From Escherichia coli (lineage in GTDB: Bacteria; Pseudomonadota; Gammaproteobacteria; Enterobacterales; Enterobacteriaceae): DNA of 16,778 nt. The stretch is from assembly GCF_003334255.1 (NCBI RefSeq), contig NZ_QOWU01000076.1, one strand, 5' to 3'. Positions 1 to 7,270 of this stretch are shown here, piece by piece. Position numbers and translations under genes: made by a program. The number at the start of each line of letters is the position of its first letter. Position 1 is the stretch's first letter. The notes under the pieces are model-generated. The model worked only from the letters and a program-made list of their open reading frames with translations, was not told the DNA's origin and searched no databases.

Positions 1-1
1 G

Positions 2-268
2 CAGTATCACGCAGAGCTGAAGAGTCTGACCGGTGCAGAAAGAACGGCGTTCATTGACGAGAACAACGGAAAATTGTTGATGAACGGGCTTATGCAGGAT
101 ACCCGGAAGAGACTGAAGGATTTGCGCAAACAGCGCGATGCCATTTATGCCGACAGTTCTCTCAGTCTGGCGCAGCAGGCGGCGATGGTGAAATCGGTAG
201 AGCGGGATATGAAGGTTGCCGTGGATCGCTTTAACCGCGAGTACAACAAAAAAGTGGGAGTGGATTAA
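2..268 (+). CDS. 3' end of a protein-coding gene that begins upstream of the window (C-terminal ~88 codons; charged, probably helical); product not identified
   Basis: Frame 2 is open from the window edge to the TAA at 266-268; the listed 64-aa ORF (74-268) is the tail of this longer frame. No family recognised from sequence. Confidence 0.35.
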   Translation, partial: QYHAELKSLTGAERTAFIDENNGKLLMNGLMQDTRKRLKDLRKQRDAIYADSSLSLAQQAAMVKSVERDMKVAVDRFNREYNKKVGVD

Positions 269-418: not shown

Positions 419-943
419 ATGGCAGCGTATTTGCTGAAAAAACATGGCGGATCTATGCGTTTCATTAAGCTGATGTATCTCTCTGACCGCAAAGCAATGG
501 AGTTGTATGGTTTTCCCATTAGTGGTGATCATTATTTCTCTATGAACAAAGGACCCGTTTTATCGCAGACATATTCTTTGGTTAAGGATGGAAGTGAAAA
601 CGAGTACAGTCCGTGGGAATCATGGATATCTGATGTAGCGGATCATAAGGTTGAAATGTGGCGTACATTTTCTTCTGTTGATGAGCTGGGGGAGTTATCG
701 CCCGCAGAAATAGAGTCAATGGACATAATTTTTGGTCAATATGGAGGTTGGGATGCGTTCAGGCTTTGTGATGAAACTCACAGAATTTGCGGTGAGTGGC
801 GCGATCCGCATGGTTCATCAATTCCAATCAGCCTTAAGGATATATTTATTGCTCTTGGAAAGTCGCCAGAAGCAGCAACAGTAATGGCGAATAGCATTTA
901 TGCGCAAAATAATCTTGATATATTATTAAGTGATCTGAGGTAG
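419..943 (+). CDS. Panacea-domain (DUF4065, GepA/SocA-like, COG3600 phage-associated) protein, 174 aa
   Basis: The N-terminal region has the pattern I associate with DUF4065 (IKLMYLSDRKAMELYGFPISGDHYFSMNKGPVLSQTY, i.e. K-L-x-Y-L ... GPV ... Y). An in-frame ATG at 392 is followed by 8 codons and a TAA at 416-418 directly abutting this ATG. Confidence 0.55.
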   Translation: MAAYLLKKHGGSMRFIKLMYLSDRKAMELYGFPISGDHYFSMNKGPVLSQTYSLVKDGSENEYSPWESWISDVADHKVEMWRTFSSVDELGELSPAEIESMDIIFGQYGGWDAFRLCDETHRICGEWRDPHGSSIPISLKDIFIALGKSPEAATVMANSIYAQNNLDILLSDLR

Positions 944-1031: not shown

Positions 1032-1676
1032 TTATGTAACAGTCCATGCAGGGCTGAAATCTGCCTGCTGAAATAACTCCGTTAGCCCGCTAATCTGCTT
1101 TAACCTCAGAACTTCATCCTGGTCCATCCCCAGTTCTGTTCCGATACGTTCATCAGTCCAGCCAAGACGTGAAAGATCTCTGACAATATCAGACATTGAG
1201 GTTATCTGGTGTTTCCCCCTGGCTCTGTTATGTCGGATAGTCGCGGCAATACGTGAGGTTTGTCCCTTTCGGTCTGGATTAATACAGGTTACTGGTAGCC
1301 AGCCTTTCAGGCGTTTTCCAGTAACTGTTCTTCTACCTAGTAACTGCCTATGAAAACCATCCACCACCAGGTAATGGCTTGTTTCTTCCGAAACAACAAT
1401 TGGTTGAGTAAAACCGTCTTTTTCCAGAGATTGTTTCAGTAATTTTTTTTCGCTTGGGGCCATGACATTGGGATTATAATCGTTAGCGACAATTTCATCC
1501 GCTTTTACCCACAGCACACAGTCCACTGGTTCTTGAGCAAAGGGGCTGATCTCATGGAGTACGCAGCGGAGATGGTTCAGGGCCTGTATGGTTTTCTCTT
1601 CAGATTGTTCCTGACTGAAGTACTGTCGAATCATCTTGCTCAGCACCTCCACCTCTGGTGTCACAGAATTCCCCAT
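1032..1676 (-). CDS. ibrB: ParB-like nuclease-domain protein, IbrB-type (214 aa)
   Basis: ParB/Srx-type motif (LVVDGFHRQ) and C-terminal helix-turn-helix-like region; strong RBS (aaggaggaagga) before the ATG at 1674-1676; the start overlaps the 3' end of the upstream gene by 16 nt. Confidence 0.65.
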   Translation of the reverse strand: MGNSVTPEVEVLSKMIRQYFSQEQSEEKTIQALNHLRCVLHEISPFAQEPVDCVLWVKADEIVANDYNPNVMAPSEKKLLKQSLEKDGFTQPIVVSEETSHYLVVDGFHRQLLGRRTVTGKRLKGWLPVTCINPDRKGQTSRIAATIRHNRARGKHQITSMSDIVRDLSRLGWTDERIGTELGMDQDEVLRLKQISGLTELFQQADFSPAWTVT

Positions 1677-2887
1677 TCCTTCCTCCTTTCATTCATACGC
1701 TGCAGGTAACGTTCATAGTGCCGGGGTTTGTTGGGGCTGAAGGAGAGCGTTCGGCACCAGAAATCATTCTTTATGAGAGTCTTACAAATACGTCGCCAGG
1801 AGGGAACATCCCGGCAGCCCAGATCATTTTCCTGTTCATCCGGGATATCATCCGGGAATCCCCGGTTCTGATACCAGCGCAGGTAAACTGCTATCTTGTT
1901 GCGGTAGTGTTCAGCCGTTCTTTCCGGCATTACGTCCAGCAGGAAGAACGCATAGCTGCGCCAGGTATGATGGGATGGTTTTGACATCCGTTTACGCAGG
2001 GCAAAATAGGCCCCGCTTTCATTGGCATAAAGAGCCCCACTGGCAGCACCAGATACTCGTTCACACATCCGTGCCCAAGTTTCTGGCTCCAGAACATGAT
2101 AAAGCCATAGTCCCTTACGCTGTTCCGGGCCAAAAGGCTCACAGACACGCATATTACGTAGAGGAATGCCTGCGCGGTACATCAAATCATACAGAGGATT
2201 GTAGATTGCACAGGTTTTAGCGTTATATACCCAGATATCGTTGGTTTTCCAGTCATACAGCGGATACATGGTGTAGTAAAAACCTTCAGGTGACGCCGTG
2301 GTCCAGGGTTTATCATCTGCATATCTCAGTTTTCGTTGGGAAACCAGTCCCATAAATCTGTTAAGAGATTCATCCGCGCGGACTCCAGTCAGTATTGCCA
2401 CGCTACATTGGTTACTTGCGAACCAGGAAGAAAAAGCCGGGACAAATTCTTCAAAAGTCATGGCGTAGCGGTAAAAGGGGAAATACGCCATATCAGTAAT
2501 AGCATCTTCCGGTGGCTGTCGAACCCACTCTACACCGGGCTCCCAGCATATCCACTCAGGCTGAAACTGCGAGACACCATTTACTGTCGTCAGGGGAAGT
2601 GCAACCCAGTAAAAGGTATCTGTTACATCTTGGTACATCATCCGCATCTTCTGTATATGATCAATGGTGCATTGATACTGGGCTTCCCAGTCAATGAACA
2701 ATACAGAAAAACGACGTTTCTTCCTGTAGGCCACTTCGGCTACAAGATGGAAAAGTACAGTGGAATCTTTACCGCCAGAAAAAGATAAACATACAGAAGA
2801 GAATGTTTCAAACAACCATTCAATGCGGTGAATGGCTGCTGACAAAACATCTTCTCCAGTTCTGATTTTTGTTATAGTTACCGGCAT
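1661..2887 (-). CDS. ibrA: PAPS-reductase-family PP-loop protein with extended C-terminal domain, IbrA-type (408 aa)
   Basis: PP-loop motif SFSGGKDS near the N-terminus, typical of the PAPS reductase / DndC-like ATP pyrophosphatase family; the stop at 1661-1663 overlaps the ibrB start, suggesting translational coupling. No clear Shine-Dalgarno before the ATG at 2885-2887. Confidence 0.7.
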   Translation of the reverse strand: MPVTITKIRTGEDVLSAAIHRIEWLFETFSSVCLSFSGGKDSTVLFHLVAEVAYRKKRRFSVLFIDWEAQYQCTIDHIQKMRMMYQDVTDTFYWVALPLTTVNGVSQFQPEWICWEPGVEWVRQPPEDAITDMAYFPFYRYAMTFEEFVPAFSSWFASNQCSVAILTGVRADESLNRFMGLVSQRKLRYADDKPWTTASPEGFYYTMYPLYDWKTNDIWVYNAKTCAIYNPLYDLMYRAGIPLRNMRVCEPFGPEQRKGLWLYHVLEPETWARMCERVSGAASGALYANESGAYFALRKRMSKPSHHTWRSYAFFLLDVMPERTAEHYRNKIAVYLRWYQNRGFPDDIPDEQENDLGCRDVPSWRRICKTLIKNDFWCRTLSFSPNKPRHYERYLQRMNERRKEWGIL

Positions 2888-3053
2888 ACAATCTGATAAA
2901 AATAGCGAGGGTTTGCATTTTACCTAGTAACGTTATGTAACTATTTTTTTGAATAAAGGCAATGAGATAATGATAAAAAATGTTTATCTAATGTACTGAG
3001 CTCTTCTCTTTATTGTATTAACTCTTCGATTTCAGCGGCGTTGTCGTTCAGGT

Positions 3054-3078
3054 ATAAAAAAAGGAGCCGAAGCTCCTT
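3054..3078 (-). terminator. Intrinsic terminator for the minus-strand antirepressor gene
   Basis: On the minus-strand RNA: AAGGAGC-UUCG-GCUCCUU (7-bp stem, UUCG tetraloop) followed directly by UUUUUAU; sits 5 nt past the stop codon at 3084-3086. Confidence 0.7.
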
Positions 3079-3083
3079 TGGTA

Positions 3084-3713
3084 TCAGAATTCAAATTGTC
3101 TTGCCCGCAGGCTTTTCAGCATTGGTCTGGCCCGCTGAACTACGAAACTCGACTGGTCAAGCCGTGCCGCCTCTCTCAGTAGCACATCTCTGTTCTTCGT
3201 CACCATGTAGATAGTCTCAAACGCAATGTCATACAGCTTGTTCGTGTATGAGGAGTTCAGCTCTTTCATTATGGGGTACAGCTGCTTGCTAAGGTCCTGG
3301 GCTTTTTCCATCCAGAGCTGCATGTAGCAAAGGAGGATGATTTCCTCGGCTGTGAATTGCGGCTGTGGTTCTGCTTGTACTGGCTGAATGTTGCGAAGTT
3401 TCTTTTCGCACTCGATGAAGTAGCGGCGGATCTGGCGACCTTTTTCGTTACGTTCAACCATCGCAAGCTCTTTGGCTGTGTCGAGGGTGAGGTGGTAATC
3501 CTTGCGGCGGCGGCCTGGAGTTTTCGCCAAATTTGGCGAAAATAGAATGTAGTCTAAATTTTCTACGAATCCATACTCGTTTAGCCTGGCCCGTATCCAG
3601 TTAGAAAAATCTTTACCTACCTCTAAAAATCCATGCAAATCACGCGCGTTCACCAGAAGCGTAGGTTCATTTGAGATTGTACCTTCAAACACAGGGATGA
3701 GTTGAGTGGTCAT
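3084..3713 (-). CDS. Phage antirepressor, AntA/AntB N-terminal domain protein (about 209 aa from ATG at 3711-3713)
   Basis: N-terminal motif LIPVF...LVNARDLHGFLEVGKDFSNWIRARLNEYGFVENLDY matches the AntA-family pattern as I recall it; RBS aaggagg 5-11 nt upstream of the ATG. The listed 263-aa ORF has a 54-codon upstream extension with no RBS that overlaps the conserved leader, so the shorter start is preferred. Confidence 0.6.
   Translation of the reverse strand: MTTQLIPVFEGTISNEPTLLVNARDLHGFLEVGKDFSNWIRARLNEYGFVENLDYILFSPNLAKTPGRRRKDYHLTLDTAKELAMVERNEKGRQIRRYFIECEKKLRNIQPVQAEPQPQFTAEEIILLCYMQLWMEKAQDLSKQLYPIMKELNSSYTNKLYDIAFETIYMVTKNRDVLLREAARLDQSSFVVQRARPMLKSLRARQFEF
3454..3508. repeat. 55-bp direct repeat, copy 1 (54/55 identical to 3982-4036), inside the full-length antirepressor gene
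   Basis: Direct comparison: tcaaccatcgcaagctctttggctgtgtcgagggtgaggtggta[a/t]tccttgcgg; encodes HLTLDTAKELAMV in both paralogs, while flanking coding sequence is clearly diverged. Confidence 0.8.
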
Positions 3714-3962: not shown

Positions 3963-4247
3963 TCAGTATTGGACGCAGTCGTCAACCATCGCAAGCTCTT
4001 TGGCTGTGTCGAGGGTGAGGTGGTATTCCTTGCGGTTGTGACCGCCTCTACCTTTTGCTTCCCGAATTTGGGAAGCAATCATATAGTCCTGATTTTCAAC
4101 GAAACCATATTCAGCAATACGTTCTGTTATCCACGATGCAAAGCGTTTACCAACCCCAAGGAAAGCGTGTAGATTGCGAGCATTGCATAGAAGGGCTGCT
4201 TGGTTTGAGATAGAACCGTTGAATACGGGGATGAGTTGACTGGTCAT
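3963..4247 (-). CDS. Truncated AntA-domain paralog (94 aa), probably a 5' gene remnant
   Basis: MTSQLIPVF...NARNLHAFLGVGKRFASWITERIAEYGFVENQDY parallels the downstream antirepressor N-terminus; same RBS (aaggagg) and start context; the ORF ends 7 codons after the shared 55-bp core. Confidence 0.45.
   Translation of the reverse strand: MTSQLIPVFNGSISNQAALLCNARNLHAFLGVGKRFASWITERIAEYGFVENQDYMIASQIREAKGRGGHNRKEYHLTLDTAKELAMVDDCVQY
3982..4036. repeat. 55-bp direct repeat, copy 2 (pairs with 3454-3508)
   Basis: See copy 1; single mismatch at 4026 versus 3498. Confidence 0.8.
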
Positions 4248-4662: not shown

Positions 4663-4776
4663 CTAATTGATTTTAAACGATACGTAACCAACTTTAAAAT
4701 CTTTGCACGCCAGTTCGCAGGTTTTACAGCCAGTACAGCGGCTGGAATCGATAAAAAATCCATATTGTGTGGTCAT
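4663..4776 (-). pseudogene. ynfG: 5' fragment of ynfG (DmsB-like 4Fe-4S subunit gene): 28 native codons, then 9 foreign codons and a stop
   Basis: Translation from the ATG at 4774-4776 gives MTTQYGFFIDSSRCTGCKTCELACKDFK (matches the ferredoxin-type DmsB/YnfG N-terminus as I recall it), then VGYVSFKIN-stop; RBS aaggag sits 7 nt upstream of the ATG and 10 nt after the ynfF stop. Confidence 0.7.
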
Positions 4777-4786
4777 GGGCTACTCC

Positions 4787-7210
4787 TTAAACCTTTTCGA
4801 TCTGGACAAGATTGCTGTGCGACGGGTTTCCCTTTGCCAGCGGTGAAGGGCGGTGAGAGGTCAGAATATTGATACTGCCGCCGTGATCGACCCGGTCACC
4901 AAACATATCCGCTTTAAGCCACGCACCTTGCCCGATGGCGGTAACGCCAGGCAGAATACGCGGAGTCACTTTTGCGGCAATCAGCATTTCTCCATTATTG
5001 TTAAATACCCGCACGGTATCGCCATGACGGATACCGCGTGCCTGAGCATCAATGGGGTTGATCCACACCTCTTGTGGGCAGGCCTGCTGTAACACATCAA
5101 TATTGCCGTAGCTGGAGTGGGTACGCGCTTTGTAATGGAAGCCCGTTAACTGCAGTGGATAGGTTTTCCGCAGGGGATCGTCCCAGCCATCAAAACCTGG
5201 GGTATACGCAGGAAGGGGATGAATAATTTCATCTTTTTTCAATTCCCAGGTATCTGCAATCTTCGCCAGTCGTTCAGAATAAATTTCGATTTTCCCCGAA
5301 GGTGTTTTCAACGGGTTTGCCTGTGGATCTTCACGGAATGCGCGGAAAGCGACGTAGTGTTCTTCCGGGCATTTTTTCTTAAAGATCCCGGTCGTTTTCA
5401 TCTCCTCGTAGTCGGGCATCTCAGGGTTACGTTCCTTCGTTTTCGCATGGAGATATTTGATCCATTCATGCTGACTGCGACCTTCAGTAAAGGTTTGATA
5501 AACGTCTGGTCCTAAGCGTTTGGCGACTTCACTCAGCATCCAGTAGATGGGTTTGCGTTCAAATTTTGCTGAGGTTGCGGGTTGGGCGAGGATCACATAG
5601 CCCATATTCCCTGCAGATTCATGAGAGATAAGGTCTTCTTGCTCTGTTGGCATCAGGTCGGGCAACAGGATATCGCAATACTTAGCCGAGGCCGTCATGA
5701 AGTGGTCAATGCCAACAATCATCTCGCACTTGCTGTCATCCTGAAGCACCTCATGGGTGTGATTGATGTCGCCATGTTGATTGATCAATGTGTTACTGGC
5801 GTAGCACCATAAAAACTTGATGGGGACATCCAGTTTTTCTTTTCCACGAACACCATCACGGGTCGCGGTCATTTCCGTACCATGGTCGATGGCATCTGTC
5901 CATGTAAAGACGGAAATCTGCGTTTTAACAGGATTCTCGAGCATCGGGAACCATTCTACCCCCAGATCCCAGCTACCTTCGCGTACGCCTGAGTTGCCGC
6001 CGTTTATGCCGACGTTGCCGGTGAGAACGGAAAGCATGGCAATAGCGCGGGATGTTTGCTCGCCGTTGGAATGTCGTTGTGGCCCCCAACCCTGACAAAT
6101 ATAAGCAGGTTTTGCTGAACCGATCTCTCGTGCCAACTGGATAATTTTTTCTGCCGGGATGCTGGTGATTTTTGCTGCCCATTCCGGCGTTTTAGCTATG
6201 CCGTCAGGCCCTTCGCCCAGAATATAGGCTTTATAATGCGCGTTACGTGGTGCGTTGGCGGGCAGCGTTTTTTCATCGTAACCAACACAATATTTGTCGA
6301 GAAATGGCTGATCGACCATGTTTTCAGTAATCAGTACCCAGGCAATCGCACAGGCCAGTGCGCCATCGGTGCCAGGGCGAATGGGCAGCCATTCATCTTC
6401 ACGCCCGGCAGCAGTGTCGTTATAACGTGGATCGATGACGATCATGCGTGCGTTTGAACGTTCGCGGGCTTGCTCGACGTAGTAAGTGACACCACCGCCG
6501 CTCATCCGCGTTTCTGCCGGGTTATTTCCGAACATAACGACCAGTTTCGTATTGGCGATATCATCCGGGCTGTTGCCATCATTGGCACCGAACATATAAC
6601 TCATTGCGGCACTGATCTGTGCGGTACTGTAGCTGCCATAGCGACTGAGAAAACCACCGCAAGAGTTCATCAGACGGTACGGGACGTTTGAGTTGGTGAT
6701 GTTTCCGCCATCTACGCCTGTTCCGTACAGGACATGTACAGCCTCATTGCCGTAATCTTTCAGGATCCGCCGAAGATTATCACTGATGGTATCTAGGGCT
6801 TCGTCCCAACTTATCCGTTCAAATTTACCTTCACCGCGCTTGCCGACGCGCTTCATGGGATATTTCAACCTATCAGGATGATTCATCCGTCGGCGGATAG
6901 AGCGCCCGCGTAAACACGCTCGAACCTGATGATTACCGTAGACGTCGTCACCTGTCGTATCAGACTCCACCCAGTACACGGTGTCATCTTTCACATGCAA
7001 ACGTAACAGACAGCGGCTCCCGCAGTTAACGGTGCAGGAACTCCAGACCGCTTTCTCTTCTACCGGAGCCTCTGCCGCCCGGACCATTTGGGAAAATGGC
7101 AGAGTGAAAGCACTGCTTGCCAGCGCAAGACTGCCAAGTGCGGAGGTTTTCATCAGACTTCTACGGCTGATTTCAGCCTTCATGAGCGCCTCTGTGGTAT
7201 GGATTTTCAT
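4787..7210 (-). CDS. ynfF: Tat-exported molybdopterin (bis-MGD) oxidoreductase catalytic subunit, DMSO-reductase family paralog YnfF
   Basis: Twin-arginine signal (ISRRSLMK), N-terminal Cys cluster (CTVNCGSRC), about 808 aa with typical DmsA-family length. Start taken at the second of two adjacent ATGs (alternative start 7213). Confidence 0.9.
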   Translation of the reverse strand: MKIHTTEALMKAEISRRSLMKTSALGSLALASSAFTLPFSQMVRAAEAPVEEKAVWSSCTVNCGSRCLLRLHVKDDTVYWVESDTTGDDVYGNHQVRACLRGRSIRRRMNHPDRLKYPMKRVGKRGEGKFERISWDEALDTISDNLRRILKDYGNEAVHVLYGTGVDGGNITNSNVPYRLMNSCGGFLSRYGSYSTAQISAAMSYMFGANDGNSPDDIANTKLVVMFGNNPAETRMSGGGVTYYVEQARERSNARMIVIDPRYNDTAAGREDEWLPIRPGTDGALACAIAWVLITENMVDQPFLDKYCVGYDEKTLPANAPRNAHYKAYILGEGPDGIAKTPEWAAKITSIPAEKIIQLAREIGSAKPAYICQGWGPQRHSNGEQTSRAIAMLSVLTGNVGINGGNSGVREGSWDLGVEWFPMLENPVKTQISVFTWTDAIDHGTEMTATRDGVRGKEKLDVPIKFLWCYASNTLINQHGDINHTHEVLQDDSKCEMIVGIDHFMTASAKYCDILLPDLMPTEQEDLISHESAGNMGYVILAQPATSAKFERKPIYWMLSEVAKRLGPDVYQTFTEGRSQHEWIKYLHAKTKERNPEMPDYEEMKTTGIFKKKCPEEHYVAFRAFREDPQANPLKTPSGKIEIYSERLAKIADTWELKKDEIIHPLPAYTPGFDGWDDPLRKTYPLQLTGFHYKARTHSSYGNIDVLQQACPQEVWINPIDAQARGIRHGDTVRVFNNNGEMLIAAKVTPRILPGVTAIGQGAWLKADMFGDRVDHGGSINILTSHRPSPLAKGNPSHSNLVQIEKV

Positions 7211-7270
7211 CATTACTCACTTATTGCTTTTCAAACAAAATGTCATGCCAGAATTTATGGTTGTCGTGGG

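Follow-up and report, generated by a model that had tools for sequence, protein, structure and literature searches.

The window is a stretch of Escherichia coli DNA 16,778 nucleotides long. Within it, two adjoining minus-strand genes, ibrA and ibrB, lie at the right-hand end of a prophage that is integrated in ynfG. The features of this region are as follows.

1032..1676, minus strand: ibrB, 214 aa, with a ParB/sulfiredoxin-fold domain and a C-terminal helix-turn-helix (HTH).
1661..1690, minus strand: coupling junction, with AGGAGG at 1682-1687 within the 3' end of ibrA and the 16-nt overlap.
1661..2887, minus strand: ibrA, 408 aa, a PP-loop ATP pyrophosphatase with a core and a basic, helical DUF3440 domain.
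IbrA residues 1-239: core, PAPS-reductase/CysD/FAD-synthase-like.
IbrA residues 240-408: DUF3440 domain, basic and helical.
2888..3059, minus strand: intergenic region 5' of ibrA, AT-rich, the presumed promoter region.
3060..3079, minus strand: terminator-like hairpin and T-run (I3, arms 100% complementary), just after the upstream antirepressor gene.

An earlier note on this DNA had described two minus-strand genes sharing 16 nt, and this is borne out by the open reading frame coordinates (overlap 1661-1676) and by RefSeq, which annotates the same two coding sequences with the same 16-nt overlap (L001 20133-20777 and 20762-21988). The stop codon of ibrA is the TGA at 1663-1661. The ATG of ibrB at 1676-1674 is preceded, at a distance of 5 nt, by the Shine-Dalgarno sequence AGGAGG, which is the ribosome-binding site that the note had seen. 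Read on the minus strand, the junction is GAAAGGAGGAAGGAATGGGGAATTCTGTGA. This sequence is nearly unchanged in the alleles of the O157 island and of pLVPK despite Ks values of about 0.8-1.4, and the two genes typically overlap by 4-28 nt among 79 distant genome loci. Because the overlap recurs in distant loci, it is a conserved feature and not a product of chance. The pair is a translationally coupled module on a PhiR5_2-like lambdoid prophage. In GenBank PV340546 the start of IbrA is set 14 codons later (58512..59696). The conservation of V14 at 96% and an alignment of homologs that reaches to about residue 5-7 favor the ATG at 2887 as the start.

A consensus scan of 2888..3059 found no sigma-70 promoter for ibrAB. 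The GC content was 0.41 over 2501-3000. The region upstream of ibrA is not conserved among ibrAB alleles, the upstream sequences of nine alleles failing to align, and the only inverted repeats near the pair are weak ones. No conserved operator, palindrome or parS-like site was found in the upstream regions of the nine alleles or by the inverted-repeat scan. The hairpin at 3060..3079 has an 8-bp stem with four G-C pairs, a 4-nt loop and the tail TTTTATACCT, and it probably separates the antirepressor gene from ibrAB.

The pair is the already named ibrA-ibrB, as the earlier note had recognized. The sequence is 100% identical to the genes annotated as IbrA and IbrB in Escherichia phage PhiR5_2 (PV340546), for which E. 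coli K-12 MG1655 is recorded as host, and in E. coli RefSeq genomes, where the product names are "phosphoadenosine phosphosulfate reductase" for IbrA and "IbrB-like domain-containing protein" for IbrB. The ibrAB genes of ECOR-9 and their IbrAB island were reportedly described by Sandt, Hopper and Hill in 2002 (J Bacteriol 184:3640), with the island boundary reportedly placed close to minute 35.8 of K-12. The ECOR-9-type genes of E. coli share the order ibrA then ibrB, the overlapping frames and the RefSeq/GenBank names. In the account given in PMC7649339, ibrA and ibrB together raise the expression of eib prophage genes (Sandt et al. 2002). The allele in the window is found at at least 99% identity in only 19 records. 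Its DNA identity to the allele that some 1,900 E. coli genomes carry is approximately 84%, and its products are 90% (IbrA) and 87% (IbrB) identical in amino acids to those of the O157 island allele. This allele is on an infectious lambdoid phage at ynfG, whereas the sampled alleles of CFT073 and O157 are on P4-integrase islands. The carrier phage also encodes a YadA-anchor gene.

IbrA carries a Pfam PAPS_reduct domain and DUF3440, and has the adenine-nucleotide alpha-hydrolase fold with PP-loop and GxRxxESxxR motifs. The motif SFSGGKDS that had been noticed in this protein is indeed present at residues 35-42, and it is a PP-loop of the classical ATP type, SGGKDS. This motif, together with D66xE68 and G168xRxxES174xxR177, is invariant across phyla in the alignment of homologs. 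The nearest structural relatives of IbrA are APS/PAPS reductase, FAD synthase and CysD, with tRNA enzymes not the closest. Sequence comparison with solved structures gave nothing better than E = 0.001. Only about 170 of the 408 residues align with CysD, CysH or FAD synthase (Fad1 or the FADS PAPS domain). IbrA differs from these proteins in having no catalytic cysteine and an extra basic DUF3440 domain, and its partner is ParB-like whereas that of CysD is the GTPase CysN. In CysH, the catalytic C-terminal cysteine sits in an ECGLH-type motif. Among 78 diverse homologs of IbrA there was no conserved cysteine, the highest values being 49% for C368, 45% for C249 and 41% for C378. NCBIfam scores were also far under the curated cut-offs (PRK02090, 32.9 vs 154 bits; TIGR02057, 31.2 vs 254.2). 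The lack of a conserved cysteine indicates that IbrA belongs neither with the PAPS reductases nor with the phosphorothioation enzymes of the DndC type, and it makes sulfur chemistry like that of DndC or CysH unlikely.

This bears on the comparison with DndC, which the earlier note had made. DndC is part of a related arrangement: DndB-DndC, like SspD and the BrxP of type 4 BREX, likewise pairs a ParB-superfamily protein with a PP-loop ATP pyrophosphatase resembling PAPS reductase, both encoded in a single operon on mobile DNA. DndC, however, requires 4Fe-4S cysteines. Its C280 is indispensable for the 4Fe-4S cluster and for phosphorothioation (PMC11662687), and its three-cysteine cluster and sulfur-relay cysteine dyad are described in PMC10853773. 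IbrA has neither the 4Fe-4S nor the persulfide-dyad cysteines, and DUF3440 takes the place of the DndC or BrxP extensions. The comparison therefore fails, and a DndC-type phosphorothioation enzyme was rejected on the missing cluster and dyad cysteines. DndD, DndE and cysteine desulfurase, which share an operon with DndC, were also not among the recurrent neighbors of ibrAB in 159 loci.

IbrB has a ParB/sulfiredoxin-fold domain, predicted to bind nucleotide, at about residues 50-157. The ParB N-terminal fold with its GxxR motif is present, and the ParB/Srx-type motif VDGFHR reported for the downstream protein was confirmed at residues 105-110. IbrB also matches the ParB-N portion of phage ParB-methyltransferase fusions (phrog_498, 7.9e-9). 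The protein is acidic overall (pI about 6) and stops after the HTH at residue 214, with no ParB C-terminal dimerization domain; the median length of its homologs is 176 aa. Lacking this domain, IbrB alone would not form a ParB-type clamp. A role as a chromosome or plasmid partition ParB was rejected because there is no ParA, parS or dimerization domain; no ParA-like family recurs near ibrAB in 159 loci. A search of the whole protein database with IbrB as query yielded close enterobacterial relatives and nothing else. A 2025 survey of the ParB-CTPase fold mentions neither IbrB nor PAPS reductase, and it may have missed the IbrB family because most of the homologs have no Pfam ParB_N match on record.

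The earlier note had called for a neighborhood survey of co-occurrence, and in this survey pairing was nearly universal. A match to the IbrB HMM adjoins IbrA on the same strand in 79/79 genome loci and in 71/80 viral loci. Four of the nine viral misses are cut by contig ends, giving about 71/76 assessable loci and leaving about five in which IbrA occurs without IbrB. The best 150 cluster representatives included no IbrA-IbrB fusion proteins; P0355 and P0349 resemble chimeric fragments, and the longer representatives have unrelated extensions or an intein. The two genes form an almost obligate unit. Its range extends from Enterobacterales to Asgard archaea and includes Firmicutes and Bacteroidota. 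The carriers are phages, both virulent and temperate, from four or more bacterial phyla, together with plasmids, islands and Asgard archaeal genome bins, a distribution in keeping with a function that would benefit any mobile DNA. Among complete E. coli genomes 1,930/5,426 (about 36%) contain the pair, as do 869 plasmid records, and on the Klebsiella virulence plasmid pLVPK it lies immediately upstream of the salmochelin genes. Purifying selection on ibrA and ibrB is strong, with Ka/Ks of 0.05-0.08 at Ks of 0.8-1.4 against the O157 island and pLVPK alleles.

We examined the neighbors of the pair in 159 loci, genome and viral. The commonest third gene encodes an SNF2-like helicase, which in 32 loci lies immediately upstream in the same orientation. 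A small GNAT acetyltransferase is a partner in 20 loci, and an uncharacterized protein of 135 aa also recurs beside ibrAB. The small A6 protein family had no Pfam, PHROG or NCBIfam match. No desulfurase, methyltransferase, glycosyltransferase, nuclease or restriction partner was recurrent in the 159 loci, nor was DndA/D/E, DndFGH, Ssp/SspABC, PglZ, BrxC or BrxHII, nor any tRNA or RNA-repair gene. In virulent phages the pair lies next to helicase, portal and terminase genes. On E. coli islands it adjoins Old-family and Mko-like defense genes.

From these features the pair most likely acts on DNA. Counted as support for the model proposed below are the identity to annotated ibrAB genes, the invariant motifs of IbrA, the predicted ParB/Srx fold and HTH of IbrB, its phrog_498 match, the near-obligate pairing, the Ka/Ks values and the distribution over mobile elements. 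The wider idea of an action on DNA, which may be a modification, draws indirect support from the SNF2 helicase and GNAT partners, from the basic DUF3440 domain and from experimental precedents for ParB-dependent DNA-modifying enzymes. The phage thymine dioxygenase 5mYOX176 needs ParB176 on double-stranded DNA (PNAS 2026, PMC13229309), and DpdB, a ParB-like ATPase of the 7-deazaguanine Dpd system, is reported, as PMC12839542 summarizes, to be required for the insertion of preQ0 into DNA by DpdA. As in ibrAB, both systems have a ParB-fold gene adjoining an enzyme gene on phages or mobile elements. The enzyme class differs, IbrA being a PP-loop ATPase, 5mYOX176 an Fe/2OG dioxygenase and DpdA a transglycosylase. 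The ParB-fold partner differs as well: ParB176 has a dimerization domain and no obvious DNA-binding domain (PMC13229309), whereas IbrB shows the opposite arrangement, an HTH without a dimerization domain.

We propose that IbrA and IbrB would form one working unit on double-stranded DNA. IbrB would bind DNA and a nucleotide and then recruit or activate IbrA, by analogy with the 5mYOX176 and DpdA systems. IbrA would spend ATP to adenylate an oxygen of DNA, such as the carbonyl of a base or a phosphate, either in the backbone or at a 5' end; alternatively, a ligand could be adenylated and then attached to DNA. The adenylate may be the final mark or may be displaced by a non-sulfur nucleophile, so that in either case IbrA would install a modification without sulfur. 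In some elements the small GNAT protein and the SNF2-like translocase would assist. The resulting mark may shield the DNA of the element from host nucleases, and it may alter transcription and so explain why prophage eib genes are reported to be activated. We hold this reading tentatively and put it somewhat short of an even chance. A broader version is rather unlikely in its full form. It holds that IbrA-IbrB would be the core of an unrecognized non-sulfur DNA-modification machine of phages, plasmids and islands in bacteria and Asgard archaea, in which a ParB-fold nucleotide switch loads a PP-loop adenylyltransferase on double-stranded DNA with help in some cases from SNF2, GNAT and the 135-aa protein. 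A new adenylylated or amine/acyl-substituted mark on base or backbone would then both conceal the element from host nucleases and turn on acquired genes, eib among them.

Several observations were counted against the proposed model. These are the lack of fusions and of an operator or parS-like site, the acidity of IbrB and the roughly five viral loci with IbrA only. The literature searched contained no report of DNA modification, DNA binding or a complex for any family member, and no biochemical function of IbrA or IbrB was found there. In addition, the only phenotype reported for ibrAB, as cited in PMC7649339, is gene activation (Sandt et al. 2002). Gene activation needs no covalent change to DNA. 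The most probable of the alternatives is a pair that acts in regulation without such a change. Here IbrB would be a nucleotide-switched activator or anti-silencer of acquired genes, like KorB or VirB, and IbrA would make, consume or sense its ligand or stabilize IbrB. IbrB differs from these plasmid regulators in lacking a dimerization domain and in being coupled to an enzyme gene, and there is no KorA and no parS-like or conserved binding site. Enzyme motifs that are invariant across phyla and under strong purifying selection are difficult to account for if IbrA were no more than a helper of a regulator. Virulent phages carry the pair beside genes for helicase, portal and terminase, and it is also found in Firmicutes, Bacteroidota and Asgard archaea, most of which, to our knowledge, are without H-NS. 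Since neither upstream regions nor neighbors are conserved, no common target operon is visible. We regard regulation without a covalent mark as unlikely, with about one chance in its favor for every four against.

Alternatively, IbrA might adenylate and modify tRNA or another RNA, as do TilS, ThiI, TtcA and TtuA, and so change how acquired genes are decoded or protect tRNA against anticodon nucleases of the host, with IbrB as its nucleotide-dependent activator. The N-terminal core of the tRNA-Ile lysidine synthetase TilS does align with IbrA; its C-terminal domains are unrelated, and TilS acts alone on tRNA whereas IbrA has a DNA-type partner and helicase neighbors. The structural neighbors of IbrA, APS/PAPS reductase, FAD synthase and CysD, also argue against an RNA enzyme, as do an obligate partner with a ParB fold and a DNA-type HTH, a commonest third gene that encodes an SNF2-type double-strand DNA translocase, and the lack of any recurrent tRNA or RNA-repair gene nearby. 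An action on RNA is accordingly quite improbable.

Slightly less probable again is a module for anti-phage or anti-plasmid defense (superinfection exclusion) with a logic akin to Dnd, Ssp and type 4 BREX. PADLOC gave IbrA weak partial matches to BrxP (1.6e-7) and DndC (4.5e-5), and carriage on prophages, plasmids and islands, with Old-family and Mko-like neighbors on E. coli islands, is consistent with defense. ParB/Srx proteins such as Osa also act in conflicts between mobile elements, as cited in PMC12839542 and PMC10853773. However, the BrxP match spans only residues 17-96 of IbrA against a profile of 779 positions, IbrB gave no PADLOC match, DndB included, at an E value of 0.01 or below, and neither protein had a full-length model match. 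The Fe-S and persulfide cysteines are absent from IbrA, and no nuclease or other effector is a recurrent partner in the 159 loci. The pair is present in virulent phages, and on E. coli islands ibrAB-perC is a constant backbone while the flanking defense genes vary. For these reasons, and with no Dnd, Ssp, BREX or restriction partner in 159 loci, the dedicated phage-exclusion role suggested earlier is not favored.

The pair might also be an accessory to phage replication or packaging, such as a DNA-binding factor that recognizes a pac site or resembles a small terminase, paired with a protein that uses ATP. PhiR5_2 and Streptococcus phage PY1 carry the pair far from terminase, purifying selection on it is strong on plasmids and on integrative islands in whose sampled 20-kb neighborhoods no packaging genes are seen, and contig ends are arbitrary for many assemblies; we give this reading only a slim chance. 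That IbrA is a true PAPS reductase (CysH) and an auxiliary metabolic gene of sulfur assimilation is by far the least credible reading, since the RefSeq name, the Pfam PAPS_reduct domain and the counting of a DUF3440-bearing viral CysH clade among genes of organosulfur metabolism (bioRxiv 10.1101/2021.01.05.425418) are contradicted by the missing catalytic C-terminal cysteine, the low PRK02090 and TIGR02057 scores, the ATP-type PP-loop and an obligate partner that is ParB-like and not a thioredoxin or sulfate-pathway gene.

The name and the genetic phenotype of ibrAB date back to 2002. Our results indicate that the RefSeq product name of IbrA is probably wrong, and that it is probably wrong to count the DUF3440 viral CysH clade as viral sulfur metabolism. 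The SNF2 and GNAT partners and the two recent precedents for ParB-dependent enzymes point instead to a likely action on DNA. Because the exact allele is on PhiR5_2, with MG1655 recorded as its host, this hypothesis is directly testable. A new DNA mark, if found, would add a modification pathway to the biology of mobile elements and would explain how the pair switches on virulence-linked genes.

The earlier note had described two overlapping minus-strand genes, and this was borne out by the ORFs of the window, by direct reading and by the RefSeq annotation, which gives both genes with the identical 16-nt overlap.

1661..2887, minus strand: ibrA ORF, 408 aa
1032..1676, minus strand: ibrB ORF, 214 aa

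Read on the minus strand, the junction is GAAAGGAGGAAGGAATGGGGAATTCTGTGA. A Shine-Dalgarno sequence, AGGAGG (1682-1687), lies within the 3' end of ibrA and 5 nt ahead of the ibrB ATG, matching the strong ribosome-binding site claimed for ibrB, and the motifs SFSGGKDS (IbrA residues 35-42) and VDGFHR (IbrB residues 105-110) are present as reported. Naming the pair ibrA-ibrB was also correct. The exact sequence is in GenBank and RefSeq under the IbrAB name, so the pair is already known, and the sequence-identical genes of Escherichia phage PhiR5_2 are annotated as IbrA and IbrB, "co-activator of prophage gene expression". The ibrA start (2845-2887, minus strand) differs by database: RefSeq uses the ATG at 2887 and GenBank PV340546 a TTG 14 codons downstream, preceded by GGAG, giving 394 aa. 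The longer form is favoured, since residues 7-14 are conserved. The junction is nearly invariant between alleles with Ks of 0.8-1.4, and overlaps of 4-28 nt are typical among distant relatives. Thus, the overlap is not due to chance. The genes are translationally coupled and inherited together almost without exception. Both genes are under strong purifying selection, with Ka/Ks of 0.07-0.08 (ibrA) and 0.05 (ibrB) for the window against the O157 or pLVPK alleles.

Conserved co-occurrence, for which the earlier note had proposed a gene-neighbourhood check, was found in both samples surveyed. One genome per species gave 79 loci from Enterobacterales, Lentisphaerota, Verrucomicrobiota, Alphaproteobacteria, Helicobacter, Desulfobacterota, Bacilli, Clostridia, Coriobacteriia, Bacteroidota, Heimdallarchaeota and Prometheoarchaeum. 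All 79 had a same-strand IbrB HMM match, nearly always directly after IbrA. IbrB lay beside IbrA in 71 of 80 IMG/VR loci; four of the nine misses were cut by contig ends and about five were true solo IbrA genes. Four related prophage-like IMG/VR contigs with a Bacteroides-like IbrA (L149, L151, L154 and L157) are an exception to the pairing rule: three have no nearby IbrB, the fourth ends about 500 nt after IbrA, and IbrA adjoins lysis genes and serine recombinases. Streptococcus phage PY1, at 33% identity, retains the gene order, and there the overlap is 17 nt; homologs of both proteins have been noted in a Heimdallarchaeal virus (PMC8813620).

As the earlier note had anticipated, HMM searches matched IbrA to PAPS_reduct and DUF3440 in Pfam (4.5e-24), to the PP-loop family weakly, and to phrog_2302. 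Residues that are invariant or nearly so across 51-78 diverse homologs are SGGKDS, D66xE68, W112/W115/W121, G168xRxxES174xxR177, P209xxDW, D217xW, Y229N, Y233D, R247 and R277. These homologs share no conserved cysteine (best position 49%), and the scores of IbrA against the NCBIfam models of CysH and CysD fall far short of the curated cut-offs. From its sequence, IbrA, whose PP-loop is intact, would be an enzyme that uses the alpha-phosphate of ATP, by adenylyl transfer or as an ATP pyrophosphatase; it lacks the thiol or Fe-S apparatus that PAPS reductase and DndC have. In DndC, C280 and the cluster are essential for phosphorothioation (PMC11662687; PMC10853773). IbrA probably carries the wrong product name in RefSeq. 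A viral "CysH plus DUF3440" clade was previously counted as sulfur metabolism, an assignment that is doubtful because the cysteines are absent. The catalytic half of IbrA is neutral and DUF3440 is basic family-wide (median pI 9.4, net +8); the latter is a probable nucleic-acid-binding domain. One 631-aa homolog (P0358) has, as judged by eye, an intein-like insertion of about 230 residues beside the conserved YN..YD motif.

For IbrB, the proposed ParB-like assignment held strongly against PHROG ParB-like profiles (4.9e-91) and only marginally in Pfam (ParB_N, 0.0094), where most homologs have no recorded match. The match to phrog_498 covers the ParB-N part of phage ParB-methyltransferase fusions. 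IbrB combines a nucleotide-binding ParB/Srx fold with an HTH, after which it terminates, and so has no ParB dimerisation domain. Across broadly similar taxa it is more conserved than IbrA (43-63% vs about 28-52% identity), and its invariant motifs NxYNPN, DGFHR and TIRHNRARGxH align by eye with ParB boxes I-III. Membership tests placed ibrAB outside each of CysH, DndC/DndB, BrxP/SspD and segregation ParB.

The window is 100% identical to E. coli strain G1/2 and at least 99% identical to sequence in 19 records. The pair sits at the right end of a prophage of about 61 kb that interrupts ynfG, between LPD38 and Panacea/SocA-domain genes on one side and two antirepressor genes and the attachment site on the other.

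1-268, plus strand: end of the LPD38 polyvalent-protein gene (whole gene 8.4 kb)
419-943, plus strand: Panacea/SocA-domain gene, directly after the LPD38 gene end and convergent on ibrB
3084-3713 and 3963-4247, minus strand: tandem antA/antB-type antirepressor paralogs with near-identical N-termini
about 4693-4776, minus strand: ynfG remnant (4Fe-4S protein without its C-terminus), the prophage insertion site, next to ynfF (4787-7213)

Panacea/SocA is normally an antitoxin domain; no separate toxin gene is evident nearby, and the gene has no match in NCBIfam or PADLOC. The second antirepressor gene is truncated and a pseudogene per RefSeq. Two full-length matches to the Rfam family sRNA-Xcc1 (RF02221; 3754-3839 and 4288-4376, minus strand; 73.4 and 69.1 bits against a gathering score of 53) lie just 5' of the ant gene starts (3713, 4247) and so resemble leader elements. 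A second prophage begins some 10 kb from the first with its integrase (15058-16353, minus strand); its exonuclease, dicB and dicA genes fall outside the window, and only ynfF-ynfA, speG and rspAB separate the two prophages. In 2002, Sandt and colleagues reportedly mapped the boundary of the ECOR-9 IbrAB island near minute 35.8 of K-12, which would correspond to the ynfG insertion region.

PhiR5_2, an isolated phage with recorded host MG1655, carries the identical sequence. Among its other genes is one for a 419-aa protein whose C-terminus is a YadA-type anchor (NF033478, 9e-19; PhiR5_2 18308-19567, equal to 1-1063 of the RefSeq-annotated E. coli record L001). Eib proteins belong to this anchor class, so regulator and possible target may share one phage.

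A diverged ibrAB allele (about 84% DNA identity) occurs in 1,930 of 5,426 complete E. coli genomes. Integrase-bearing islands of CFT073 and O157 have the order int, variable genes, ibrA, ibrB, perC-family gene, hypothetical gene. The variable genes resemble defence genes (an Old-family nuclease in one of the strains, an Mko-like helicase in the other), so ibrAB is part of a constant backbone flanking a variable defence slot. Plasmid records with relatives at 88-92% amino-acid identity number 869 and include Klebsiella pLVPK and IncF plasmids; Shigella virulence plasmids have short remnants only. On pLVPK, the hypervirulence plasmid of Klebsiella pneumoniae CG43, ibrAB (7977-9838; IbrA 91% identical to that of the window) immediately precedes the salmochelin genes iroBCDN and has been listed among hypermucoviscosity-associated genes. 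The upstream regions of nine enterobacterial ibrAB alleles share no common motif.

We clustered about 2,700 neighbouring ORFs from 159 loci. A same-strand SNF2-like helicase (phrog_62; weak ZorD/DrmD similarity) lies directly upstream in 32 loci. A small GNAT protein recurs in 20 loci, one member matching RimI-like models (4.4e-8), and hhalign joined two GNAT sub-families with 96% probability. IbrA or IbrB adjoins a 130-140-aa family (A6; for example 7598-7990 in L095 and 7561-7986 in L119) in 18 mostly viral loci; its invariant residues are W11, E12, W57, N71 and G77, and Pfam, PHROGs and NCBIfam gave no match. Other neighbours, seen occasionally, are NinG/Rap, replicative helicase, terminase and portal genes. 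Flavobacterium phage FCL-2, a virulent phage with no integrase and no detected lysogeny (PMC4541368), has the order helicase, IbrB, IbrA, small ORF, portal. Mycobacterium phage Philly has ParB-like, hypothetical, IbrA-like and second ParB-like genes ahead of terminase. In 14 of the 41 long viral contigs, where about 6 would be expected, IbrA lies within 3 kb of one end; this agrees with the prophage-end position in the window, though contig ends are often arbitrary. Absent from the recurrent neighbours in the 159 loci are cysteine desulfurase, DndD/E, PglZ, methyltransferase and nuclease effector genes. The DndC-like framing of the pair fails on this result and on the missing cysteine.

Our best model, held tentatively, is that IbrA and IbrB act jointly on double-stranded DNA, where IbrB would recruit or activate IbrA and IbrA would adenylate a DNA oxygen, or a ligand destined for joining to DNA, to install a non-sulfur modification. 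The ParB part is made concrete by two precedents: the phage thymine dioxygenase 5mYOX176 requires its cognate ParB specifically on dsDNA (PMC13229309), and DpdB, a ParB-like ATPase, drives DpdA-dependent preQ0 insertion into DNA, according to the summary in PMC12839542. The pair resembles such ParB-dependent systems in logic but differs in enzyme class. Mobile DNA of every kind carries it, virulent phages among them; a DNA mark would account both for its usefulness to mobile elements of any sort and for the eib activation that has been reported.

Pure regulation by a KorB/VirB-like switch is unlikely; it fits the eib phenotype and the virulence-gene neighbours but leaves unexplained the invariant catalytic site and the occurrence in virulent phages and archaea. 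A tRNA or other RNA substrate, the common type of target for PP-loop enzymes that have binding domains, is less probable again, being opposed by the HTH partner and the SNF2 neighbour. The defence or phage-exclusion role that had been suggested lost ground and now seems quite improbable, as there is no recurrent effector, PADLOC contains no model for the pair, and virulent phages carry it. There is slightly less to be said for a packaging or replication accessory, since ibrAB is retained on plasmids and islands that have no packaging genes. A true PAPS reductase is contradicted by the sequence and is scarcely credible.

The idea that ibrAB acts on DNA is thus strengthened but unproven. The literature searched reports no biochemical activity for IbrA or IbrB, and the pair is absent from recent surveys of Dnd, BREX and the ParB-CTPase fold. 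The locus itself is unsurprising, but a very widely distributed pair that was named 24 years ago now has a sharper hypothesis, directly testable on a phage whose recorded host is E. coli K-12.
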